A stretch of 64,000 bases of DNA. It comes from an uncultured Phocaeicola sp. (GTDB lineage: Bacteria > Bacteroidota > Bacteroidia > Bacteroidales > Bacteroidaceae). Positions 4,200 to 26,315 of this stretch are shown piece by piece; positions within the stretch are counted from its first letter, which is position 1, and the number at the start of each line of letters is the position of its first letter. The position numbers and the translations under genes are program-made. The notes below the pieces were generated by a model, which was given only the letters and a program-made list of their open reading frames with translations, was not told where the DNA came from and did no database searches. The DNA lies in NCBI GenBank assembly GCA_947626525.1, contig CANQSM010000004.1, positions 3,080-67,079 on the forward strand, read 5' to 3'.

Positions 4200-4847
4200 A
4201 TGAAAACTTTAAAGTCAATGATGTTAGGTATCGGTGTGTATGCCTTGTGTAGTTGTGTTCCTTCGCATTCTGAGCAAATATCACAACAGAGCGAACGAAA
4301 ATCAGACAGCGCGGTAGTGGTAGAAACCATCATGTCTCGTCGTAGTATTCGTAAGTATAAGCCGCAACCTGTGGAGCGGGATAAAATGGATGTGATTGTG
4401 AATTGTGGAATCAATGCTCCTAACGGCCAGAACAAACAGTCGTGGGAGGTGCGTGTAGTCAGCAATCCGGAGTTTCTGAACGGTATTACGGAAGTATTCA
4501 AGAAAGAAAATCCCAAAGTTGCGGAGGACCCGACTTTCAAGAATATGTTTCGTAATGCGCCGACAGTCGTATTTATCGCAAATGATCCGGGATACGATCT
4601 TTCGAGGATAGATTGTGGGCTGTTGGGCGAGAATATGATACTTTCTGCTTGGAGTATGGGTGTCGGTTCTGTTTGTCTGGGAAGCCCCGTGCGTTTTATG
4701 AATACGGTTCCTGCGGCTCAAGAATATCTGAAGAAGCTGGGTTTTAGTGAAGGATATGAGTTGCTTTATTGCATAGGTTTTGGTTATCCGGATGAAACGC
4801 CTGCTGCGAAACCCCGTGATATGGAAAAGGTAAAGTTTATGGATTGA
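4200..4847 (+). CDS. nitroreductase-family protein with an N-terminal signal or lipoprotein sequence
   Basis: 215 aa. RRSIRKY and the nitroreductase fold motifs follow a hydrophobic leader ending ALCSC. Confidence 0.8.
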   Translation: MKTLKSMMLGIGVYALCSCVPSHSEQISQQSERKSDSAVVVETIMSRRSIRKYKPQPVERDKMDVIVNCGINAPNGQNKQSWEVRVVSNPEFLNGITEVFKKENPKVAEDPTFKNMFRNAPTVVFIANDPGYDLSRIDCGLLGENMILSAWSMGVGSVCLGSPVRFMNTVPAAQEYLKKLGFSEGYELLYCIGFGYPDETPAAKPRDMEKVKFMD

Positions 4848-9393: not shown

Positions 9394-10236
9394 ATGAAAA
9401 CAAATTATGAAATTCGTTATGCTGCGCATCCGGAAGATGCGAAAAGCTACGATACTGCAAGAATCCGTCGGGATTTTTTGATTGAGCGTGTGTTTGCTGC
9501 TGATGAGGTGAATATGGTGTATTCTATGTACGACCGCATGATTGTAGGTGGAGCTATGCCGGTAAAGGAAACTTTGAAACTGGAAGCCATTGATCCGTTG
9601 AAGGCTCCTTATTTTACGACCCGTCGTGAAATAGGTATGTTCAATGTAGGTGGACCGGGTATTGTAAAGGCCGGTGATGCCGTGTTTGAACTGAACTATA
9701 AAGAAGCATTGTATTTGGGTTCAGGTGACAGAGAGATTACCTTTGAAAGCAAGGATGCAGGGAACCCGGCAAAATTCTATTTTAACTCTTGCACTGCACA
9801 CTGTAACTATCCCGACAAGAAAATTACCAAGGCTGATGCCGTGGTGGCTCACATGGGCTCACTTGAAGGATCTAATGAGCGCAACATCAATAAGATGATT
9901 GTCAATCAGGTATTGCCTACTTGTCAGCTTCAGATGGGTATGACTGAATTGAATACAGGTTCTGTATGGAATACGATGCCTGCTCATGTACATAGTCGTC
10001 GTATGGAAGCTTATTTCTATTTTGAAGTCCCGGAAGATCAGGCTGTTTGCCATTTTATGGGTGAAGTGAATGAAACACGTCACTTATGGATGAAAGGCGA
10101 TCAGGCAGTATTGTCTCCCGAATGGTCTATTCATAGCGCGGCCGCTACACATAACTATACTTTTATTTGGGGTATGGGTGGTGAGAACTTGGATTATGGA
10201 GATCAGGACTTCTCGTTGATTACCGACTTGAAATAG
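9394..10236 (+). CDS. kduI: 5-dehydro-4-deoxy-D-glucuronate isomerase
   Basis: 280 aa. The MKTNYEIRYAAHPED start, cupin core and length are typical of KduI. Confidence 0.88.
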   Translation: MKTNYEIRYAAHPEDAKSYDTARIRRDFLIERVFAADEVNMVYSMYDRMIVGGAMPVKETLKLEAIDPLKAPYFTTRREIGMFNVGGPGIVKAGDAVFELNYKEALYLGSGDREITFESKDAGNPAKFYFNSCTAHCNYPDKKITKADAVVAHMGSLEGSNERNINKMIVNQVLPTCQLQMGMTELNTGSVWNTMPAHVHSRRMEAYFYFEVPEDQAVCHFMGEVNETRHLWMKGDQAVLSPEWSIHSAAATHNYTFIWGMGGENLDYGDQDFSLITDLK

Positions 10237-15954: not shown

Positions 15955-18900
15955 CTATTCTTCAGTTACACGTGTTTTGTATAAGGTGTACAGTTCGTTG
16001 AACTTTTTACTGTAATGCTCTGCCATACCCGACTTGCTCTGTCCGGTTGCCAGACTCTTGTTGGTTTCATCCAACAAATAGAGATGATACATACACTCTT
16101 CCAGATTTTCTCTTAGTCTGTTGTCGTTGAGATTCAGATACCAAGTAATGTATTCAACGGATTTATTGGCTATCGCATCCAATATCTTTTCTGCTTTGGC
16201 TGTTTCTCCCAGTTGCATGTAGGCTTTGGCCAATGTCATCGAACCGCTTTGGAAATCATGTGGCACCGTTTCGTTCGGAATCACCTGTTCGCAATAGTCG
16301 AGTGCCTTTAGTGCTTTCTCTTTCTTGCCTTCTTTCAACAGTTGGGTAATCAGCTGGCCAAACATGCGACGATGGGTATAGCACATGCGGGTAATGGTTT
16401 CATCGAGGTAAATATCCGGATTTTCAATGCCGCCGAACTTGAACTTATGCATCATGTTGTCGTACATTTTGTCCGTGTCGATGGCATATCCGTCGCGCAC
16501 ATTCTGCCCGTATCCCAGTTGCTGGAAGTTGAATGGAGTAATGCGGTAAGCCAACCCCTCTTGCAGGAAGAAAGGAGCCAGTCCCAGATGATTGTCTTCA
16601 CCTACTGTGGTAGCCATATAGATAGGACGCTCCCAGTTGGTGTTTGCCAACATCTCAAGCATCATCAGTTCATTTTTGTACAGTGCGCGTTTTTTCAAAG
16701 GAATCACCATCTTGTCGGGGATACTGTCTTTTAATGTGTCGGGAATCATCATGCCCGAACGTTCGATAGCCTCCTTATCCAGCGTGATGTACACCGTATC
16801 GGTAGGGATGAGGTGCAAATCTTCGTTCTTTGCCCGTACCCAATATTTCAGGATGTTCTTCAGTTCGAACGGTTCGTCGCCGAAGCTCTCTTTGGCGGCT
16901 TCCGGATTACGGACATACAGGTTGAGCACCTGTGCTTTGGCTTCTGGACGAATGGGAATGTATTCATTGGTTCCGGCTACGAACTCGATGCGGTCCCAGA
17001 GGATGGGTACTGATGGGGAATCATAGGCCGGACGACGCATTTGGTCGATGTACCAGTCGGTTTGCAGGTAACTGAGATTGCATACGCGTACGTCCGTACG
17101 GAATCCTTCCGTTTCCTGATTATACCAGAGCGGGAACGTGTCATTGTCTCCATTGGTGTAGATAATGGGTTTGCCTTCTTCCTGCACGCTCATCAGATAA
17201 TTTTGTCCAAAATCGCGGCAAGTGTAGCGTCCGCTACGGTCGTGGTCGTCCCACGTTTGGCTGGCCATCTGTATCGGGATACAGAGACAAAGCGCCGTTG
17301 CCAAGGTCGCGGCAGGCATACCGGATATTTTTTTGCGTAACAATTGCACGATGCCGGCCACGCCCATACCTATCCAGATGGCAAAAGCATAGAAGGAACC
17401 AGCATAAGCGTAATCCCGTTCACGTGGCTGCGCCGGTGTCTGGTTCAGATAGAGCACGATGGCGATACCTGTCATGAAGAACAGAAAAAATACTATCCAG
17501 AATTGCTGGATACCTCGGTTCCCCTTGTAGGCTTGCCAAAAGAGCCCGATGAGTCCGAGCAATAAAGGCAGACAGAAAAATACGTTATGCCCTTTGTTGT
17601 TCTTCAGGTCGGACGGGAGAAGTGTCTGGTCTCCCAATATCCGGTTGTCGATAAAAGGAATACCGGTTATCCAGTTGCCTTTCGTTGTTTCTCCATTTCC
17701 TTGTATGTCGTTTTGCCGTCCGGCGAAATTCCACATAAAGTAGCGCCAATACATGTAATTCAGCTGATAAGTGAAGAAGAATTTGATGTTGTCCCATTGG
17801 GTGGGCATTTTCACCATGACGGTGTTGCCACACTCATCGTAAGGTACTTGGTAACCTTCTATGCCTCCCAGCCACTCTTCGTACTGGTTGGCATGCTGGT
17901 CGCTGTGCATACGGGGGAAGAGCATATTTTGTGCGTAAACGTAATCGACTTTATGGCGGACGATTTCATAGCTGTCCTTCTCGTCCGGTGTGGCTTTCTC
18001 CTTGCGTTGGTATACCGGAGCGCCTTCTACCGCTACCGGCACACAATAGTTTCCTTCCGGTTTCAGTTTGATTTTGGAGGAATAGGCTTGTCCGTAGAAA
18101 AGCGGACGGGTACCGTATTGCTCACGTCCCAAATAATCGCCCAGTGTGAAGATGTCCTCCGGAGAGTTCTGATCCATCGGCGTGTTGGCGGTAGAACGGA
18201 TGACGATCAGTGCGTAGGAAGAGTACCCTACCATAATCATCATGATGCAAAGCAAAGAGGTATTCAGCGTACGTGCGCTTACCATGAACTTCTTGCCGAA
18301 TTTGCCGAACAGATAAAGCGACAGGAGGGCCAGTATGATAAGCCCTATGATAATGCTCCCCGTTCCGTGTCCATAGAAGGGGATACCCAGCAAGGCTATC
18401 GTGGCAACGAAAGCGATGTTCATCCGCTTACGGCTTTTTTCGGTATAGCTTTCGTGCACACCCCAGATAATGGAAGCAGTCAGCAGGATGATGTAAACGA
18501 TGACGCCGGTGTTGAACGGCATGCCGAGGCTATTGACAAACAGTAGCTCGAACCATCCGCCCACTTTTACAGCTCCCGGCACAATACCGTAGAGCACGGC
18601 GGCAACCAATATCATGGAACCGAGCAAGGCAAGTAACGAACCTTTCAGATTGGCGTTCGGATTCTTTTTATAGTAGTATACCAATACGATGGCCGGGATA
18701 CACAGCAGGTTGAGCAGATGTACGCCGATAGAGAGCCCTGTCAGGTAAGCAATCAGTACCAGCCAGCGGTCGCTGTGCGGCTCATCGGCTACGTCTTCCC
18801 ATTTAAGAATCAGCCAGAACACGATGGCTGTGAACAGGGAGGAATAGGCGTAGACTTCGCCTTCCACTGCACTGAACCAGAATGTGTCGCTGAATGTGTA

Positions 18901-19290
18901 AGCCAATGCGCCCACCAGCCCGGAGCCCATAATGGTAATCAGCTTGGCGGTGTTCATCCGTTCCATGTCCGGACAAACCAATTTGCGTACCAAATGCGTG
19001 ATGGTCCAAAAGAGGAAAAGGATACATCCTGCGCTCAGCAAGGCCGACATGGTGTTAACCATACGTGCCACTTGGTCCGGGTCGCTGACAAATTGTGAGA
19101 ACAAATTGGCGGTCAGCATGAAGAACGGTGCGCCGGGCGGGTGTCCGACTTCCAATTTATATCCGGTAGTAATAAACTCGGGGCAATCCCAGAAACTTGC
19201 GGTTGGTTCAATGGTCATGCAATAGACTATGGCTGCAATAAGAAAAGTAAACCAACCCATCAGGTTGTTGACTGTTTGGTATGTTTTCAT
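15955..19290 (-). CDS. large multi-pass membrane protein, DUF2723 / glycosyltransferase-like
   Basis: About 1111 aa with many TM helices, the N-terminal motif EPTASFWDCPEF, and C-terminal TPR-like helices. Start chosen at MKTYQTVNNLMGW. Confidence 0.8.
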   Translation of the reverse strand: MKTYQTVNNLMGWFTFLIAAIVYCMTIEPTASFWDCPEFITTGYKLEVGHPPGAPFFMLTANLFSQFVSDPDQVARMVNTMSALLSAGCILFLFWTITHLVRKLVCPDMERMNTAKLITIMGSGLVGALAYTFSDTFWFSAVEGEVYAYSSLFTAIVFWLILKWEDVADEPHSDRWLVLIAYLTGLSIGVHLLNLLCIPAIVLVYYYKKNPNANLKGSLLALLGSMILVAAVLYGIVPGAVKVGGWFELLFVNSLGMPFNTGVIVYIILLTASIIWGVHESYTEKSRKRMNIAFVATIALLGIPFYGHGTGSIIIGLIILALLSLYLFGKFGKKFMVSARTLNTSLLCIMMIMVGYSSYALIVIRSTANTPMDQNSPEDIFTLGDYLGREQYGTRPLFYGQAYSSKIKLKPEGNYCVPVAVEGAPVYQRKEKATPDEKDSYEIVRHKVDYVYAQNMLFPRMHSDQHANQYEEWLGGIEGYQVPYDECGNTVMVKMPTQWDNIKFFFTYQLNYMYWRYFMWNFAGRQNDIQGNGETTKGNWITGIPFIDNRILGDQTLLPSDLKNNKGHNVFFCLPLLLGLIGLFWQAYKGNRGIQQFWIVFFLFFMTGIAIVLYLNQTPAQPRERDYAYAGSFYAFAIWIGMGVAGIVQLLRKKISGMPAATLATALCLCIPIQMASQTWDDHDRSGRYTCRDFGQNYLMSVQEEGKPIIYTNGDNDTFPLWYNQETEGFRTDVRVCNLSYLQTDWYIDQMRRPAYDSPSVPILWDRIEFVAGTNEYIPIRPEAKAQVLNLYVRNPEAAKESFGDEPFELKNILKYWVRAKNEDLHLIPTDTVYITLDKEAIERSGMMIPDTLKDSIPDKMVIPLKKRALYKNELMMLEMLANTNWERPIYMATTVGEDNHLGLAPFFLQEGLAYRITPFNFQQLGYGQNVRDGYAIDTDKMYDNMMHKFKFGGIENPDIYLDETITRMCYTHRRMFGQLITQLLKEGKKEKALKALDYCEQVIPNETVPHDFQSGSMTLAKAYMQLGETAKAEKILDAIANKSVEYITWYLNLNDNRLRENLEECMYHLYLLDETNKSLATGQSKSGMAEHYSKKFNELYTLYKTRVTEE

Positions 19291-19324
19291 GAACGAATAA
19301 AGTTTCATTAACACTAACTAGTCG

Positions 19325-19332
19325 CAAAGATA
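19325..19332 (-). promoter_or_regulatory. -7 box TAtcTTTG (minus strand) upstream of the DUF2723 gene
   Basis: The plus strand reads caaagata, about 35 nt upstream of the chosen ATG at 19290. Confidence 0.45.
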
Positions 19333-19767
19333 CAACAAAGAAACGAAAGTGAGTGCGAAATGGGGAAAGAATGTTGTCTGTTAGCGATTCAACAGTGTTT
19401 GCCAAGATGTTGCGGTGCCATCAAAAGACAACGAAAAGTCAAGAAATGATAGAAATCATGTCATCAGACTATGATGCGATGAAAAGAATAGAGGCAGAGG
19501 GAAAGCTTGACGAATGGGTTGAAATGAGTATGCGGTTGGGCTTGTCGCAATGTAAATTCCTTGTAAAATATCGGCCATACAATAAATCTCTGTAACTTTA
19601 GAACTGAGAAATAGTGATAATCGTTTAAATGTTATAACTTGACATTGTAAATTTAATACTTTTATCACTATGTTTCTATTTAACAGCAGATTCCATCTAT
19701 CCTTATTTCGAACTTACGTTAAACATAAGTCAAAATCCAAACAAAATCATAATGAATAAACAGTTTT

Positions 19768-20979
19768 ATGACATCAATCAAATTAAAATTCAGAGCGCAT
19801 ACGGATAGCAAGAAAGAGGGGGCGTTGTATTTTCGAGTCATACACGACCGGGTAGTCAAGCAGGTTAAGACTGGCTATCGCATATTTGAATATGAGTGGG
19901 ATAAGCAACGTGGCGAGATTGTTAAAGAGTTTCCGCTATCGGCGGCACGAAACGAGGCATTGAAGATTCTCCGCGACAAGGTTTTGTGGGAGCAAAGGAA
20001 GTTGGGACAAATTGTCAAATCTTTTGAGAATATTGGCAAGCCATATACAGCCGGTGACATAATCCACCGCTACAAAGAATCAGCATCGGACAAAACGACC
20101 GTCTTTGAGTATATACATCATCAGTCGGAACGAATGAGGAAACTCGGCAGAGTGCGTACTAGCGAAACTTATCAGCAGACATTGCATAGTTTTATGCGGT
20201 TCCGCAAGGGTGTCGGTTTATATTTCGATATGCTCGATGCCGATATGGTCGAGCAATATGAGAGTTATATGCGGGCGAAGTGTTTGAGCCGTAATACGAC
20301 CTCCTTTTATATGCGGATTCTTCGATGTATTTATAACCGAGCTGTCGAAGATGGCCTTGTCCAGCAAAGCAATCCGTTCAAACGGGTTTATACCGGTGTA
20401 GATAAAACAGCCAAACGGGCCATATCGCTCAAAGAGATTAAGCGGATTAAGGAATTAGACCTTGCGAATAAACCAGATTTAGATTTCGCCCGCGATCTGT
20501 TTTTATTCTCGTTTTATCTTCGCGGCATGTCGTTCATCGACCTTGCCTATCTGCGCAAGAAAGACCTTGCGAACGGTTACGTTAACTATATCCGCAAAAA
20601 GACCGGGCAGCAACTTACGATTCGCTGGGAGCGGTCGATGCAGGAGATTATCGACAAATATCCTGAAAATCCGACACAGTGTCTGCTGCCAATCATCACG
20701 AAGCAGGACGGTATGGAGCGCAGACAGTATTTGAACAAGATTCTGTTTGTCAATCGGAAGTTGAAACTAATCGCCCGACAGGCGAAAATTTTCACGCCGC
20801 TGACGATGTATGTCAGCCGTCATAGTTGGGCAAGCATCGCCAAGTCGAAAAATGTTCCGTTAAGTGTCATCAGCGAGGGCATGGGACACGACAACGAAGA
20901 GACCACGCGCATCTATCTCGCCTCGATACATACCAACCAAATAGACGAAGCCAACAGTCGAATATTGAATGAATTATAG
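19768..20979 (+). CDS. tyrosine-type site-specific recombinase (integrase or DNA invertase)
   Basis: 403 aa. The N-terminal region resembles the arm-binding domain of Bacteroides integrases. The C-terminal catalytic signature is SRHSWAS...GMGHDNEETTRIYL (R, H-x-x-R, H, Y). Confidence 0.9.
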   Translation: MTSIKLKFRAHTDSKKEGALYFRVIHDRVVKQVKTGYRIFEYEWDKQRGEIVKEFPLSAARNEALKILRDKVLWEQRKLGQIVKSFENIGKPYTAGDIIHRYKESASDKTTVFEYIHHQSERMRKLGRVRTSETYQQTLHSFMRFRKGVGLYFDMLDADMVEQYESYMRAKCLSRNTTSFYMRILRCIYNRAVEDGLVQQSNPFKRVYTGVDKTAKRAISLKEIKRIKELDLANKPDLDFARDLFLFSFYLRGMSFIDLAYLRKKDLANGYVNYIRKKTGQQLTIRWERSMQEIIDKYPENPTQCLLPIITKQDGMERRQYLNKILFVNRKLKLIARQAKIFTPLTMYVSRHSWASIAKSKNVPLSVISEGMGHDNEETTRIYLASIHTNQIDEANSRILNEL

Positions 20980-21005
20980 AGGAAAATCTGTTCGGAATAA
21001 TCGCG

Positions 21006-21028
21006 CTATCTCTCCGTAAGAGATAGTC
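21006..21028. repeat. IR-L of the invertible segment (ctatctct-ccgta-agagatag-tc)
   Basis: Exact reverse complement of 21313-21335. It is internally palindromic, with 8-bp arms and a 5-nt asymmetric core. Confidence 0.95.
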
Positions 21029-21040
21029 ATATTGCGTGGG

Positions 21041-21072
21041 CAAATGTAATATGTTTAGTTCAGACCGCCAAA
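21041..21072 (-). promoter_or_regulatory. consensus Bacteroides promoter (TTTG-N20-TAcaTTTG) on the minus strand, firing leftward out of IR-L
   Basis: The minus strand reads gtaTTTGgcggtctgaactaaacatatTAcaTTTGcccacgcaatat, then IR-L. The -33 element is at 21072-21069 and the -7 box at 21048-21041. Confidence 0.65.
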
Positions 21073-21312
21073 TACTTTTTTAATTTTTTTCTCGCTTTTC
21101 TCATTTTTATCTCTGGGCGGGATTTTCCGGCGATTCGACGGTTCGCTATCTTTCCTGAGCAGGAGGCCTTCTTCTGCATAGCTGGCTGGCAACACGAAAG
21201 ACCACGCCGTTGGAAAAACAAGGCCGCATAGGCGAAAAATGATAAAAAAAACGATGCGATGGATTCTTGAATACCATTCAACAATTTGATAATCAATAGT
21301 TTTGAAATTTGC

Positions 21313-21335
21313 GACTATCTCTTACGGAGAGATAG
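21313..21335. repeat. IR-R of the invertible segment (ga-ctatctct-tacgg-agagatag)
   Basis: Exact reverse complement of 21006-21028. Confidence 0.95.
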
Positions 21336-21530
21336 TATATAGTATGTAGAACAACCATGAAAAAAGGAGGTATAAAAGCGTAGAAATGAAATGTACTTTA
21401 ATATAATAATGTATGCGAAAACATCGTCCAGAAATTCTGGAAGGGGCGGAGAGGAGGACGATGGAGTATGGAATCAAAATCAAACCAAATCAATATCAAT
21501 AACAGATACATTTTTTTAATTCTTTCTATT

Positions 21531-24500
21531 ATGTTAAACAAATTTAAAAAGTTTATGGCGATATTCTCTGTATTGGGATTTATCGCATTGGGTGTCGGAT
21601 GCTCGGACTATGACGACGACATCGATGGTTTGCAAACGCAAATAGACGAGTTGAAAACGGGAAGCATTGCGAGCATAGAATCGCAGTTGACTTCTTTGTC
21701 TACAACAGTCGGCAATTTGCAATCTGCGCAGCAAACGCTTCAATCGGGTTTGTCGAACTTGCAGTCGGATTTATCGAGTTTGCAGTCGGACGTGAACAAC
21801 CTTGAAAGCGTGAAAAGCGAAGTAGAGTCTCTTAAGACAAAAATTGAGGAGATAGAGTCTACGTTCGTTTCGAAGGATTTCTTGACGACCACTTTGTCGT
21901 CTTATGCTACGACCGAGTCGGTAGCCGAAACGGCTGAAGAACTGCGGAAAGCCGTGAACGATGCTAAGACGGAGTTGCAGGCAGCGATAGCCGCTGCTCA
22001 GACTGCTGCTGATAAGGTTGCAGAAGAGAAGGTGGCTGAACTTGAAACAAAGATTTCGGAGTTGCAGGCAGCGATAGCCGCTGCTCAGACTGCTGCTGTG
22101 AAATCTGCGGGTGAGGCTTGCGCTGCTGCTTTCCAAGGGAAGTTTGATGCAGCCGTATCGGCGGCCAAACTCGTTGACAATGAGAATCTGTCAAATGCCA
22201 TTAAGGATTACGATGCCAAAATCAAAGAGTACATTACTTCGGCTATTAACGATAACAATGGTGTAATCGACGGGAAGATAAGCGAACAGATTAAGTCCGC
22301 TGTAGGAAGCTTGCAGAAACTGATTGTAGGCCGTCTGACGAGCTTGAAGCTGATTCCCGATGCCTATGAGAACGGTATCGAAACCATTGAGCTGAACGCT
22401 CTAACCTATACGGAATGGAAAAACGTGGCTGCTGCTACGGCAAGGACGGAGACTACCCCGACACAAACAGGAGGCAACCATATAACTTCTGCTGCGGATA
22501 AAGTGAAAACGGTCAAGTATCATGTAAGCCCTGCCAACGTTACGACGGAGGGTATCGGTGCCGTAAAATTCTGGTTGCAGACCGCTTCCGACAAGGATAC
22601 TCGTGCCGCTGCTGTTAAAGCCGAAGACCTGTTTGAGATAACTGGTTTTGCGGTAAACACTACAACAGACGGTCTGAAGACTTTGGATGTCGATTTGAAG
22701 AAAAAGTTGGGAGCCAATTTGTCGGCTGGCGCAGGGAAAATTTACACTGTTGCCTTGGAAGCTACTATCGCCGATGATTTGTGTGTTGATGGAGAGACAG
22801 GAGCCAAGGTTTATTCGGACTATGCCAAATTGAGTGAAAACGTGATTACGCCGGAAATCGCACAATTGACAAAGGATAGCGAAGGCAAATATGCGTTCGG
22901 TTCTGGGCATCTGCATTTCGCAAAAACGTATGACGATGCGAAAATGAGTCCTACCGCTGTAATTCAGGCTCTGTACAACGAACCTCTCGATATGCTTGCT
23001 TTCACCGACGCTTCCTACAACTACGGCGCTCACCCTGGCTGTAAGGAATTCTCGAAAGAGGCTTGCGAGAATGTAGGATTGTATTTCGAATACAATGTGG
23101 TAGGAGAACCGTGGTTAGTAGGTTCTACTAATACAGATCAACAAATGCATGCCAAGGTCAGCGATGGCCATTTCCTGATTGCACAGGCTCCTGCCGCAGG
23201 CGGTACCTTTGCAGAGAGATCCGAAACGGCTATCGGCAAGACCCCGGTAGTTCGTGTATTGCTCCGCGACAGCAGGAATAACAACGCCGTTGTAGATGTC
23301 AAGTATTTCCGCGTTGAGTGGGTATCCAAAGATGTGGAAGATAAGAAATTAGGCGTGGTTAAGACGTTCGATTACACACTTGATTGCGACGGATTCAACA
23401 CTAATAACGTCTTTACGTGGGAGGATATGTCGCGTATGGTACTGACACAAATCGGTGAGAACGGTATTTCAAGAGACGATTTCGTGAATCTCTATAAAGC
23501 CCCGGTTATCGAGACAGAAGATAAGGTACATTACTGGGATAAGGAGGTTGTTTGTCCATTGAATAATGATCGTGTTGTAGGAAGTGTAGGAACTGCATAT
23601 AGAAGCGTAACAGACGATGATGAAGTAGCCGGAACGCAACCTGTAGAATTGGTTTACAATTATGGAGGCGTGTCACCCGAGGATGGCGTATTCACATGGT
23701 ATCTGACAGCTCACCAGATCGGTTCGATTATGCACGAGGCCGAATATACAGACCATGGCATATGGGTATGGCCGGGTACTCCTGTTAAACGTACTGTTAC
23801 TATTACCTGCGAATCAAGGAACAAACATCAGCGCGGTGATGTCACTTTCCAATTCGAAGTACTTATCAAATTGCCGAAAGAGCCGTTCGTATCCCCGATG
23901 GAAGGCCGTTCATGGAAAGATGGTAACAATTTCGATGAAATACGGTTTACGCCGGTTATCCTCGGAACAGTGAACCGCGGGGGTGCAACAGTTGTATCGG
24001 GAGATAGTCCGGTTTACGATTGGGATGTACAGAATTCGTTCAAGGATGTTGATGCTGCAGCAAATGGCGGTCAAATTGTCGGCGATCCGAACAAATACGA
24101 TTGCTTCTGTTGGGATATCCAATTCTGCCACAAGCAGCCGAACGCTTACTATGTATACGCTAATCCTGATAATACTCAACGGTTTGCAGTAGATAATTCG
24201 CAAAAAGGATATGAGTTGTTAACCAAATCAAATGGTAGGGTAGCCGCTAAATTCGATTACGATGCGGCCATGGGCGACCGCTGGTACAGGGCAGATGCCG
24301 ATGCTACAGCTAAGATTCACCTGACGATTGATCATACAGATGAAGGTGTCGCCATGGTTGAAAATGAACATAAGATGAATGTGGACGTTTGGTCGAGAAT
24401 CAACAAGTACAATTACCATCTTGTCAAAGACTTTGCGGTACAGGTTGTGAAACCGTTGACCATCAATCCGGAGACAGTCGACGGATTCGAGGACGGTTAC

Positions 24501-24908
24501 ATGGGAACGCAGACTTTGGAAATTGCCAAGGCTGTAACCATGACGGATTTCATGGGCTGGACTGTTTCCTATTCAGGTATCAGAATTCCGAATAATCCGA
24601 ATTATACACAGGCAGATCTCTTCGAATACTACAAGATCTCATCGATGAAATTCGATTTGGCCAACGCTTATGTAGATATAGCCGGGAGGCCGTCGGTTGA
24701 CGAATACTTCGGTGCCGATGCTCTCCAACTGGTAACGGATAACACAACTGTCAGTGGCTGCACTCTTACGAATCTGACTTACGACAAAAAGAAGAGCGAC
24801 CTGCAGACTACAACGGTTTACATCGTAATCGATGTTACGGTTAAACACTACTGGGGCACGGCAAAGGCAACGGTTCGTATCCCTGTTAACCCAGGACGTG
24901 CTGCATAG
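21531..24908 (+). CDS. large predicted surface lipoprotein: coiled-coil N-terminal stalk plus an uncharacterised C-terminal region
   Basis: Start placed at MLNKFKKFMAIFSVLGFIALGVGC (lipobox), with CSDYDDD after the Cys. Heptad-repeat region spans about residues 30-250. About 850 further residues contain no motif I recognise. 1125 aa in total. Confidence 0.85.
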   Translation: MLNKFKKFMAIFSVLGFIALGVGCSDYDDDIDGLQTQIDELKTGSIASIESQLTSLSTTVGNLQSAQQTLQSGLSNLQSDLSSLQSDVNNLESVKSEVESLKTKIEEIESTFVSKDFLTTTLSSYATTESVAETAEELRKAVNDAKTELQAAIAAAQTAADKVAEEKVAELETKISELQAAIAAAQTAAVKSAGEACAAAFQGKFDAAVSAAKLVDNENLSNAIKDYDAKIKEYITSAINDNNGVIDGKISEQIKSAVGSLQKLIVGRLTSLKLIPDAYENGIETIELNALTYTEWKNVAAATARTETTPTQTGGNHITSAADKVKTVKYHVSPANVTTEGIGAVKFWLQTASDKDTRAAAVKAEDLFEITGFAVNTTTDGLKTLDVDLKKKLGANLSAGAGKIYTVALEATIADDLCVDGETGAKVYSDYAKLSENVITPEIAQLTKDSEGKYAFGSGHLHFAKTYDDAKMSPTAVIQALYNEPLDMLAFTDASYNYGAHPGCKEFSKEACENVGLYFEYNVVGEPWLVGSTNTDQQMHAKVSDGHFLIAQAPAAGGTFAERSETAIGKTPVVRVLLRDSRNNNAVVDVKYFRVEWVSKDVEDKKLGVVKTFDYTLDCDGFNTNNVFTWEDMSRMVLTQIGENGISRDDFVNLYKAPVIETEDKVHYWDKEVVCPLNNDRVVGSVGTAYRSVTDDDEVAGTQPVELVYNYGGVSPEDGVFTWYLTAHQIGSIMHEAEYTDHGIWVWPGTPVKRTVTITCESRNKHQRGDVTFQFEVLIKLPKEPFVSPMEGRSWKDGNNFDEIRFTPVILGTVNRGGATVVSGDSPVYDWDVQNSFKDVDAAANGGQIVGDPNKYDCFCWDIQFCHKQPNAYYVYANPDNTQRFAVDNSQKGYELLTKSNGRVAAKFDYDAAMGDRWYRADADATAKIHLTIDHTDEGVAMVENEHKMNVDVWSRINKYNYHLVKDFAVQVVKPLTINPETVDGFEDGYMGTQTLEIAKAVTMTDFMGWTVSYSGIRIPNNPNYTQADLFEYYKISSMKFDLANAYVDIAGRPSVDEYFGADALQLVTDNTTVSGCTLTNLTYDKKKSDLQTTTVYIVIDVTVKHYWGTAKATVRIPVNPGRAA
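21970..22098 (+). repeat. perfect 42-bp direct repeat (21970-22011 and 22057-22098), 87-bp period, in frame inside the lipoprotein gene
   Basis: cggagttgcaggcagcgatagccgctgctcagactgctgctg occurs twice and encodes ELQAAIAAAQTAA both times. Confidence 0.95.
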
Positions 24909-25059
24909 TGATGAGAAATTCTCTTTCCACTCCGGCATCGTGTAAGCGGTGCCGAAGATTGGAGAGAATAAACGAGGATTCAGTTACACTGATACAGTAT
25001 CCGATTGAGTAACAAACAAATTTTTTCTAGAATCGGGTCGTAAGGTATTTTTGTGAAGT

Positions 25060-25100
25060 ATCACCCCTGTCGAACTTGACTTCGGCAGGGGTGATTTGTA
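25060..25100 (+). terminator. hairpin terminator downstream of the lipoprotein gene
   Basis: atcacccctg (25060-25069) pairs with caggggtgat (25086-25095), followed by ttgt. Confidence 0.5.
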
Positions 25101-25151
25101 TAGTATGTGATCATCCGAAATCGGCCGACCAGGAAAGCTCGTTCATGTGGG

Positions 25152-25415
25152 CTTTTAGGCATCTTCGGGCCATCGCCCGGGCTGAGGGCAAACATGAAGA
25201 ACAGGCTCATGTCCATGTGGAACAGAATCGTGCTCAGGAAGAGGTACATCATTGAGTACATCAACGACCTGCTGAAAAACAAAGCAAACATCATGCATTC
25301 AAGGCACCGATCAATACACAATTTCATCATGCACATTTGCTCCGTACTTACGGCATATTCGTTCTTTGAGAACAAGTCGGAAGCATTGGCCTGTACATGT
25401 GGAAAGACGAAATGA
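25152..25415 (+). pseudogene. IS982-family transposase remnant (C-terminal part only)
   Basis: The translation NMKNRLMSMWNRIVLRKRYIIEYINDLLKNKANIMHSRHRSIHNFIMHICSVLTAYSFF matches the conserved C-terminal block of IS982 transposases (NMKN...LRKR.IIE..N..LKN...IEHSRHRS..NF). The N-terminal two thirds are absent. Confidence 0.65.
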
Positions 25416-25467
25416 TTGACATGATAGATGTAATGAAGGTGAAGGAGAAAAGATGTATGGGTTTTAC

Positions 25468-25599
25468 CTGTTTTTGTTTTTTCTGCTGTTTTCCGCTGTG
25501 GATGGTGGCATAGACACCTAAGGAGACTAACGGGATAACGCAGGGGCCTCCGGCGGGCACCGTGTACGAAAAGGAAGGAAACACCCTACCGGATGCGGG
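25468..25599 (-). pseudogene. remnant of a metal ABC transporter permease (ZnuB/TroC-like), last ~44 codons only
   Basis: The translation ASGRVFPSFSYTVPAGGPCVIPLVSLGVYATIHSGKQQKKQ resembles the C-terminus of ZnuB-type permeases (..F..YDTPAGP.VVL......KKQ). It lies immediately downstream of the ATPase gene. Confidence 0.5.
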
Positions 25600-25604
25600 T
25601 GTGT

Positions 25605-26315
25605 TTATGCGTTGGGGCAGCCGAAATATTCTTCCAGCCATTCGGCAGGTATTTCCGTGCCGGGGTGGTAGTCCAGCGTTTCGTTGACATAGGCGACGGC
25701 TTTCACATATTGGAGTATTGTACCGATGTCGTGGCTTACTAAAATAATGGCCCGCTCATGATTGATTTCCTTTAACAGTTTGTAGAGCTTGGCTTCGAAA
25801 CGCTTATCAATATAAGTGTTCGGCTCATCGAGAATTACCACATCAGGGTCCGAGATAATGGCCCTTCCGAGCAGTGCCCGTTGTAATTGTCCACCGCTTA
25901 ACTGACCGATGGCACGCTTTTCCAGTCCTTCGAGTCCCATTTGTGTGATAACTTCGCTTACTTTGGCGTGCTGCTCCTTGCTGAACCGGTGGAAGAGTGA
26001 TTTCTGTCTGCTGAGTCCGGAAAGGATGACATCGTACACGGAAATGGGAAATTTCTTGTCTATCTGGTTGTATTGTGGCAGATAGCCCATTTTGATTTCA
26101 TGGGTCGGATTGCCGTTGCGGAAGTAATGGACATTTCCCTTATGAGGCTTGACTAAACCTAAGATGACTTTTATCAGGGTTGTTTTGCCTCCTCCGTTTG
26201 GGCCGATGATTCCAAGGAAATCTTTTTGGTGGACAGTCAGGTTAACATCATTCAGTACGACTCTCTCATCGTAAGCAACTTGTATCTGTTCGAGTCGGAT
26301 GATAGGGTTATTCAT
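25605..26315 (-). CDS. metal (Zn/Mn-type) ABC transporter ATP-binding protein
   Basis: 236 aa with Walker A GPNGGGKTT, signature LSGGQLQR and Walker B VVILDEP. It overlaps the upstream binding-protein gene by 8 nt. Confidence 0.88.
   Translation of the reverse strand: MNNPIIRLEQIQVAYDERVVLNDVNLTVHQKDFLGIIGPNGGGKTTLIKVILGLVKPHKGNVHYFRNGNPTHEIKMGYLPQYNQIDKKFPISVYDVILSGLSRQKSLFHRFSKEQHAKVSEVITQMGLEGLEKRAIGQLSGGQLQRALLGRAIISDPDVVILDEPNTYIDKRFEAKLYKLLKEINHERAIILVSHDIGTILQYVKAVAYVNETLDYHPGTEIPAEWLEEYFGCPNA

Follow-up and report, generated by a model that had tools for sequence, protein, structure and literature searches.

The DNA analyzed here, a 64-kb stretch of contig CANQSM010000004.1 (below, the window), contains a putative invertible-promoter locus composed of a tyrosine recombinase gene, a segment bounded by inverted repeats, and a gene for a large lipoprotein. 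The original prediction, made from the letters alone, had described the recombinase gene, a pair of perfect 23-bp repeats beginning 26 bp after it, and a lipoprotein gene of 1,125 amino acids (aa). Each of these was confirmed at the positions listed in Table 1: the recombinase as a 403-aa open reading frame (ORF) with Phage_integrase and SAM_5 domains, the repeats as 23-nt sequences without mismatch, the left one (IR-L) beginning 26 nt past the recombinase stop codon and enclosing with the right one (IR-R) an interior of 284 nt, and the lipoprotein as an ORF with a lipoprotein signal peptide. An alternative upstream ATG of this last ORF lies at position 21468.

TABLE 1 Features of the locus and its surroundings, with positions in the window
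Feature	Positions	Strand	Basis and remarks
Tyrosine recombinase (invertase) gene	19768-20979	+	403-aa ORF; Pfam matches
Left inverted repeat IR-L, CTATCTCTCCGTAAGAGATAGTC	21006-21028		Repeat search; end of contig L098
Invertible interior, 284 nt	21029-21312		Orientation comparison between assemblies
Canonical Bacteroides-type promoter (predicted)	21041-21072	-	Motif match: -33 TTTG 21072-21069, 20-nt spacer, -7 TACATTTG 21048-21041
Second -7-like box, TAGTTTTG	21297-21304	+	Motif match; 8 nt before IR-R, faces lipoprotein gene
Right inverted repeat IR-R, GACTATCTCTTACGGAGAGATAG	21313-21335		Repeat search; center TACGG
Fixed leader, 195 nt, IR-R to start codon	21336-21530	+	Sequence
Surface-layer-type lipoprotein gene, 1,125 aa	21531-24908	+	ORF; homology; model
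8-bp hairpin, 25 nt past lipoprotein stop codon	24933-24954	+	Read from sequence; no T-run
15-bp hairpin (93% complementary), downstream of lipoprotein gene	25060-25095		Repeat search; no T-run
IS982-type DDE transposase, C-terminal remnant	25107-25412	+	PF13612, E 7e-15, profile positions 111-155 of 155
TMEM260-like protein O-mannosyltransferase, 1,119 aa, with C-terminal TPR repeats	15955-19314	-	PF11028, E 6e-80

Both orientations of the segment occur in natural assemblies

The evidence for inversion comes from a sister strain, represented by six ENA metagenome contigs (L095 to L100) that carry a 99%-identical variant of the recombinase (P0083). After the recombinase had been placed on the plus strand in all six, the interior was found reversed in L095, L096, and L097 and forward in L099 and L100, while L098 terminates precisely at the final base of IR-L. 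The forward orientation was also present in L101 and in the window. Comparison of reversed with forward sister contigs revealed no difference over the 1,238 nt that comprise the recombinase gene and left flank, none in the interior (283 to 285 nt) once it had been reverse complemented, and 0 to 1 differences over 769 to 900 nt of the right flank; both repeats were identical. Because the two orientations occur between identical flanks, these contigs represent one strain in two states with breakpoints within the repeats, and the segment inverts in nature. The 23-nt repeat is probably shorter than the k-mers used in assembly (k87 and k141 appear in the names of other contigs), and contigs spanning both junctions would therefore reflect real reads. 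The search for the alternative orientation that had been proposed at the outset was thus successful in assemblies of the sister strain (three reversed, two forward), but not in those of the window's own strain. A further strain, with a 92%-identical lipoprotein (L002), has the same orientation as the window.

In L096, a GC dinucleotide is missing at the junction of IR-L and the reversed interior (positions 4461 to 4465; GATAGTC/AAATTTC versus GATAGTC/GCAAATTTC), which reflects either true variation at the edge of the repeat or an error of assembly.

Repeat arms and recombinase

Each repeat arm is near-palindromic and has the form CTATCTCT-CCGTA-AGAGATAG, in which 8-nt half-sites flank the center. 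Asymmetry within the arm is limited to this center, which reads CCGTA in IR-L and its reverse complement, TACGG, in IR-R. The core TATCTCT-N5-AGAGATA, with up to 2 mismatches allowed, was found at two sites only in the 64 kb, namely the two repeats, against a chance expectation of 0.17. By their sequence, the arms are laid out like the lox/FRT-type core sites of a tyrosine recombinase, placed in inverted orientation to each other. Written as ATCTC-(T-N5-A)-GAGAT, the core would match the published 17-nt palindrome GTTAC-N7-GTAAC in its 5-7-5 geometry. We refer to ATCTCT-N5-AGAGAT-type cores as class B and to GTTAC-N7-GTAAC cores as class A.

The interior is GC-rich and about 110 to 150 nt longer than that of most related class-B invertons. 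A degenerate third half-site, CGCTATCTTTCC, lies within it at positions 21144 to 21155, in direct orientation to the start of IR-L (CGCTATCTCTCC). Third half-site and long interior could point to a composite of two ancestral elements, or the half-site could be an accessory site for an arm-type domain. A 78-aa ORF inside the segment (positions 21060 to 21296, minus strand) matched no family and was judged spurious.

The recombinase consists, from N to C terminus, of an arm-type DNA-binding domain (Arm-DNA-bind_5, PF17293; aa 10 to 97, 32 bits versus a cutoff of 22.6), a SAM-like core-binding domain (Phage_int_SAM_5; aa 111 to 202, 78.9 bits), and a catalytic domain (Phage_integrase; aa 250 to 386, 30.4 bits). 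NCBIfam gave sub-threshold matches to Xer and integron integrases and nothing above threshold. In an alignment with nine relatives, R252, K278, Y348-x-x-R351, H374, and Y383 were invariant, and the arm-type domain, comprising the N-terminal ~100 aa, was confined to the clade of 403-aa enzymes. A tyrosine replaces the usual first histidine; this substitution is unlikely to inactivate the enzyme, because it is also found in the 312-aa recombinases of class-A loci, including the Bacteroides thetaiotaomicron locus L066 discussed below. The 403-aa clade is large and highly conserved (70 to 88% identity over the full length), and its members are annotated as site-specific integrases of Prevotella sp., uncultured Alistipes sp., and Odoribacter lunatus.

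Class-B cores accompany recombinases that are 42 to 100% identical to that of the window (L024, L030, L039, L052, L056, L079, and L102 to L110), and class-A cores accompany the 312-aa clade, which is ~31% identical to it (L037, L066, L085, and L089). In the sequences compared, repeat class thus follows recombinase clade. This is our main, though indirect, argument for regarding the adjacent recombinase as the probable cognate invertase of the segment.

Promoter orientation and leader

The Bacteroides promoter consensus comprises TTTG at -33 and TAnnTTTG at -7 (cited in PMC8748976). A consensus promoter had been predicted within the segment, and a matching motif is indeed present, but it is located on the minus strand and faces away from the lipoprotein gene. 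Its -7 box, TACATTTG, sits 12 nt from IR-L, through which the promoter points leftward. In L095 to L097, TTTG-N20-TACATTTG faces the lipoprotein gene. Because the canonical promoter faces the recombinase and not the lipoprotein gene, the window was most likely assembled in the OFF state.

The geometry was compared in 11 other class-B invertons (L003, L024, L030, L031, L046, two in L052, L056, L102, L105, and L108). A TAnnTTTG box was found 11 to 17 nt from one core in 10 of them, L105 being the one without, and was accompanied in five by a -33 TTTG at 19 to 20 nt. In most of the class-B assemblies compared, the box points away from the cargo gene. Exact TAnnTTTG boxes are absent from the GTTAC-class loci, so these provided no cross-check of orientation, and a sigma-70-type promoter scan yielded nothing informative in this phylum.

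The second -7-like box, TAGTTTTG, lies 12 nt from the right 17-nt core. A -33 TTTG was not found at 17 to 23 nt from it, the sole TTTG being at 8 nt, and the box could be a weak second promoter. The view that TAGTTTTG at position 21297 is the main promoter, with the window in the ON state, was rejected after the geometry comparison across the 12 related invertons.

No significant RNA structure was detected in the fixed leader (z = -0.54), and an Rfam scan of positions 19000 to 26000 gave no match. A poly-T tract (21515 to 21521), ~13 nt before the lipoprotein ATG, has a length of T7 in the window, L094, L095, L099, and L101 and of T8 in L001 and L093. Either sequencing noise at the homopolymer or slipped-strand variation, as a second layer, could account for this difference. 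The A-rich leaders before the two start codons, at 19730 to 19760 (TCAAAATCCAAACAAAATCA...) and 21474 to 21503 (TCAAAATCAAACCAAATCAA...), are ~80% alike over ~30 nt, which may be due to chance in A-rich sequence or a trace of cassette insertion.

The lipoprotein belongs to an S-layer-type superfamily

The signal peptide of the lipoprotein, MLNKFKKFMAIFSVLGFIALGVGC, is followed by SDYDDD, giving the N terminus CSDYDDDI, and its cysteine is invariant in 41 homologues. An acidic stretch behind the cysteine counts among the lipoprotein export signals of Bacteroidota, by which this lipoprotein is predicted to reach the cell surface.

Pfam, NCBIfam, and PDB sequence searches with the protein returned coiled-coil noise only (aa 30 to 230), and 81 hits were obtained in a set of 5.8 billion proteins. 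A scan of species-representative genomes, with an 8-sequence alignment of close homologues as the query, detected 279 relatives in Alistipes, Prevotella, Muribaculaceae, Bacteroides, Phocaeicola, and Barnesiella, all of which have the N terminus ...C(K/S)DYDDDI... in common. A search against BT1927-family lipoproteins had originally been suggested. BLASTP against the lipoprotein of L066, a locus assigned to this family by layout and repeat, gave a match with an E value of 5e-22 over aa 244 to 655, plus the shared motif CxDYDDDIxGLQxQID. In a profile-profile comparison with hhalign, the group of the window and Alistipes-like proteins aligned with ten mostly recombinase-linked homologues from Bacteroides and Prevotella, with a probability of 100%, an E value of 1e-115, and 963 aligned columns, covering both full lengths. 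On the basis of these BLASTP and hhalign matches, the cargo, which the original prediction had left as uncharacterized and without a nameable domain beyond a coiled-coil stalk, is placed by homology as a distant member of the known, recombinase-linked superfamily of CKDYDDDI S-layer-type lipoproteins, rather than as a new kind of protein.

An AlphaFold2 model of the lipoprotein (mean predicted local distance difference test [pLDDT] score of 69.6) consists of a helical, coiled-coil-like stalk of low confidence (aa 26 to 267) and a chain of beta-sandwich domains, mostly with pLDDT values of 70 to 90 (aa 270 to 1125). Low confidence in the stalk would be expected for an oligomeric coiled coil modeled as a monomer. 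The best Foldseek matches in the PDB were Bacillus anthracis Sap, Geobacillus SbsB, cadherin ectodomains, and alpha-2-macroglobulins, with TM-scores of 0.10 to 0.23 overall and of 0.10 to 0.15 for the S-layer proteins Sap and SbsB.

The window and L095 share 99.7% identity in their flanking DNA and 92% in the lipoprotein, the latter with mosaic blocks of 80 to 100% identity that differ between strains. Such mosaic divergence is the pattern that would be expected of an exposed surface antigen under selection. P0007, the Alistipes-like orthologue encoded in L012, belongs to a 90%-identity cluster with 1,435 members, far above any other hit. The size of this cluster suggests extensive microvariation of the surface protein in populations.

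A probable phase-variation switch and alternative explanations

We consider it very probable that the locus is a phase-variation switch, in which the recombinase flips the promoter segment and the lipoprotein is produced by a subpopulation of cells. According to the mechanism that we propose, the 403-aa recombinase would bind the two 21- to 23-bp palindromic cores (CTATCTCT-N5-AGAGATAG) and synapse them, and strand exchange in the asymmetric center (CCGTA/TACGG) would then invert the 284-bp segment, because the two cores lie in opposite orientation. In the present orientation, TTTG-N20-TACATTTG would direct transcription across IR-L and, in antisense direction, into the recombinase gene from its 3' end, with the lipoprotein OFF. 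After inversion, transcription from this promoter would cross IR-R and the 195-nt leader before reaching the lipoprotein gene, and this orientation is presumably ON. A subpopulation of cells would in consequence display a coiled-coil-stalk/beta-sandwich lipoprotein of the S-layer type on their surface. One might further speculate on feedback from antisense transcription into the recombinase gene. By analogy to what has been published for BT1927, the selective benefit may lie in evasion of phage, complement, or immunity.

Several points weigh against this interpretation or parts of it. Activity and direction of the promoter are predicted from motif matches and, with TAGTTTTG facing the lipoprotein gene in the window, "OFF" may mean "low," and the assignment could even be wrong. 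The alternative orientation was not found in the window's own strain, as the assemblies with the exact recombinase (L001, L093, and L094) match the window. Two Tsr enzymes of Phocaeicola vulgatus are mutually redundant and work in trans (PMC12940148). The lipoprotein of L066 is taken to be one of the eight published S-layer proteins from layout and repeat, not from an accession. Finally, what the Foldseek matches to the model indicate is a series of Ig-like domains of a generic kind, which would suit an S-layer role and is not specific for it.

Among the alternatives, a swap between two promoters instead of an ON/OFF switch fares best, even though we regard it as unlikely. With an outward promoter at either end of the segment (TACATTTG left, TAGTTTTG right), the lipoprotein gene would be transcribed in both orientations at different strengths, and the other promoter would in each case run antisense to the recombinase gene. 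Both boxes are indeed 12 to 16 nt from a core, which is the typical geometry of class-B invertons, L031 likewise has a box at each end, and the long interior together with the third half-site suggests a composite origin. However, TAGTTTTG has no -33 TTTG at an appropriate distance (17 to 23 nt), most homologous invertons have a single box, and TAnnTTTG occurs in the window at 0.37 per kb per strand, so that a chance match is possible in AT-rich DNA.

It is decidedly improbable that a different recombinase, encoded elsewhere, inverts the segment in trans and that the adjacent gene is inactive or serves another site. There is documented precedent for redundant and trans-acting Tsr enzymes in B. 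fragilis (BF2766) and P. vulgatus (PMC12940148). L003, which encodes a 78%-identical lipoprotein, also has a class-B inverted pair (TATCTCT-TAACA-AGAGAA/...TTCT-TGTTA-AGAGAT, 136 nt apart), with a promoter facing away from the gene, and in the 565 nt available upstream before the contig ends it contains a tRNA-Arg gene and no recombinase gene. These precedents stand against the tracking of repeat class with the clade of the adjacent recombinase across more than 15 loci, the constant spacing of 25 to 30 nt between recombinase stop codon and first core in the window and L102 to L110, the intact catalytic residues of the enzyme, and the lack of any other tyrosine recombinase homologue in the 64-kb window.

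A mobile-element reading, in which the recombinase would serve as integrase, the repeats would mark the element's ends or remnants of attachment sites, and the two orientations would be assembly artifacts, is hardly credible, because the arm-type domain typical of element integrases, the 82 to 83%-identical homologue beside Mob_Pre, primase, and AAA_25 genes in Alistipes (L102 to L104), and the IS982-type transposase remnant 200 nt downstream of the lipoprotein gene are opposed by a window with no mobilization or transfer genes and only weak, short direct repeats, by flanks made up of housekeeping genes that are 99.7% identical between strains, and by three independent samples with the reversed and two with the forward orientation, all with exact breakpoints at repeats probably shorter than the k-mers.

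Related class-B loci

In Prevotella and Bacteroidaceae metagenome-assembled genomes (MAGs), the loci L024, L030, L031, L046, L052, and L056 resemble the window in having a class-B core, a CKDYDDDI lipoprotein, and a TAnnTTTG box 11 to 17 nt from one core. The recombinases of the Prevotella and Bacteroidaceae class-B loci are 42 to 55% identical to that of the window, and those read as a full ORF (L052, L022, L039, and L079) comprise 313 to 358 aa and, unlike the window's enzyme, have no long arm-type domain. Some of these recombinase genes lie downstream or on the other strand, and an OmpA-like gene usually follows the lipoprotein gene, which is not the case in the window. The interiors span ~130 to 165 nt between the repeats (~345 nt in L024), compared to 284 nt in the window.

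Two arrangements among these loci are more complex. In the Prevotella MAG loci L039 (positions 5937 and 13180) and L079 (5937 and 13325), exactly complementary class-B cores lie 7.2 to 7.4 kb apart, with lipoprotein, OmpA, and recombinase genes between them. These distant cores could be the right and left repeats of tandem modules, or substrates for a large inversion or shufflon. In the Bacteroides MAG locus L052, the first lipoprotein gene is followed at a distance of 750 nt by a second class-B inverton (9549 to 9752), whose box faces the ORFs after it (ON), in contrast to the first inverton, which is OFF. Since the cores of the two are near-identical, one recombinase may serve both.

Further recombinases of the 403-aa clade are found in L102 to L110 (Alistipes, Odoribacter lunatus, and another Bacteroidales lineage) and are, over their full length, 77 to 82% identical to that of the window. 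In each of the three contexts examined, inverted (A/T)(A/T)CTCT-N5-AGAG(A/T)T cores begin ~25 to 30 nt past the stop codon. Two of these contexts have an outward -7 box within the 148 to 165 nt that the core pairs enclose (none in L105). These cores are mostly AACTCT-N5-AGAGTT, compared to ATCTCT-N5-AGAGAT in the window, and the secreted or lipoprotein cargo differs as well: MORN-trypsin with TPR/CHAT, CsgG-like with radical SAM, or DUF5683 with BACON proteins take the place of the S-layer-type lipoprotein. In L102 to L104 (uncultured Alistipes sp.), the 398-aa, 82 to 83%-identical recombinase and its inverton end a block of HTH_17, AAA_25, primase, and Mob_Pre genes and are followed by genes for a MORN-trypsin protein and then TPR/CHAT proteins. 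This looks like phase-variable cargo on a mobile element. Near-identical invertases have been reported to spread across Bacteroidales hosts on conjugative elements (PMC8748976).

The nearest named relatives of the cargo are Alistipes orthologues (L004, L012, L013, L015, and L018) with 33 to 37% identity over the full length. They share with the window lipoprotein the architecture of stalk and beta domains and the lack of an OmpA partner. In L004 and L012, unlike in the window, the lipoprotein gene lies between cvpA and ispG, with no recombinase gene or inverted repeat upstream. L013, L015, and L018 have no recombinase homologue within 6 kb and no class-A or class-B core site. The Alistipes lipoprotein genes are thus presumably not controlled by inversion.

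These comparisons raise a broader possibility, which we put forward tentatively and with considerable doubt. Arm-domain recombinases and (A/T)(A/T)CTCT-N5-AGAG(A/T)T cores might constitute a distinct and so far unrecognized inverton family, a portable promoter cassette distributed across Prevotella, Alistipes, Odoribacter, and Bacteroidaceae-like genomes, which would here have been grafted onto an OmpA-independent lipoprotein gene that is not inversion controlled in Alistipes. Such a cassette may have two outward promoters, with an OFF state antisense to the recombinase. Another inverton repeat class, TACTTNNNANGTAANNGAA, has been documented (PMC12940148). The ATCTCT-N5-AGAGAT core was not found in the texts of the literature searched, which is not proof that the core is undescribed.

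Neighboring genes and host

The two hairpins downstream of the lipoprotein gene bear on the claim, made originally, that this gene has its own terminator. Both are present, and that at 24933 to 24954 is a possible terminator, but neither has a T-run and a terminator scan made no call at either position. A gap of ~700 nt follows the lipoprotein gene, and beyond it ABC and ZnuA genes lie on the opposite strand. A past insertion or rearrangement at the transposase remnant may explain the missing OmpA partner gene. On the other side of the locus, the gene for the TMEM260-like O-mannosyltransferase is the divergent upstream neighbor, and this pairing is kept in the sister strains.

The IspG protein of the host has ~75% identity to its counterparts in Bacteroides nordii and Mediterranea massiliensis and 53% to that of Alistipes. 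Because IspG is closer to Bacteroides and Mediterranea, the host is, judging from this protein, not an Alistipes. The search with IspG placed the host no more finely than to the family. The G+C content is 46%. In the scan of species-representative genomes, no close species representative of the host lineage was found.

Relation to BT1927-type S-layer loci

Tyrosine-recombinase invertons that govern S-layer lipoproteins are already documented (PMC4611039; bioRxiv 10.1101/521070). BT1927 and seven paralogous S-layer/OmpA loci have recombinases and 17- to 22-nt palindromic repeats with GTTAC-N7-GTAAC (consensus CCGTTACCTABVRAGTAAC), an element of ~256 bp, a conserved N-terminal region of ~48 aa, and an adjoining beta-barrel gene (PMC4611039; bioRxiv 10.1101/521070; PMC12118408). 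The phase-variable S-layer lipoproteins of B. thetaiotaomicron change phage and complement resistance, as described in the BT1927 literature. L066, from a B. thetaiotaomicron MAG, encodes a 312-aa recombinase, followed by the repeat pair CCGTTACTTATTAGGTAACGG/CCGTTACCTAATAAGTAACGG 262 nt apart, a 1,043-aa lipoprotein, a 149-aa ORF, an OmpA-family protein, and a second recombinase with another GTTAC pair. In its gene order, this is the published BT1927-type S-layer/OmpA layout.

The original prediction had compared the window locus with switches of the BT1927 kind. The type of switch, the gene order, and the homology of the cargo bear this comparison out. In both, a same-strand tyrosine recombinase gene lies upstream of a promoter segment of ~260 to 290 bp between palindromic repeats, which is followed by the gene for a lipoprotein of ~1,000 aa. 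The lipoproteins have the N terminus CxDYDDDI and are homologous over their full length, and the recombinases are homologous in their catalytic and SAM-like domains, with 31% identity and the same invariant residues. The comparison does not extend to repeat class, OmpA partner, and recombinase length. The repeat core is ATCTCT-N5-AGAGAT in the window versus GTTAC-N7-GTAAC in BT1927-type loci, and no GTTAC-N7-GTAAC site was found in the window. The window's 403-aa recombinase belongs to another clade and has an extra N-terminal arm-type domain of ~100 aa, compared to enzymes of ~312 aa of the BT1928/Tsr26 type. Its lipoprotein is only ~25% identical to BT1927-type proteins and belongs to a subfamily otherwise found in Alistipes. 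In contrast to L066 with its OmpA gene, neither an OmpA beta-barrel gene nor a small ORF was found downstream of the window lipoprotein gene.

The locus leaves the understanding of how such switches work unchanged and is what a specialist would expect, since this type of switch is known in gut Bacteroidales. With one strain found in two orientations with exact breakpoints, it can serve as a benchmark for inverton callers and help in the annotation of the ATCTCT-N5-AGAGAT class. With another repeat class, another recombinase clade, and no OmpA partner, an uncultured Bacteroidales lineage appears to follow the same strategy as B. thetaiotaomicron.

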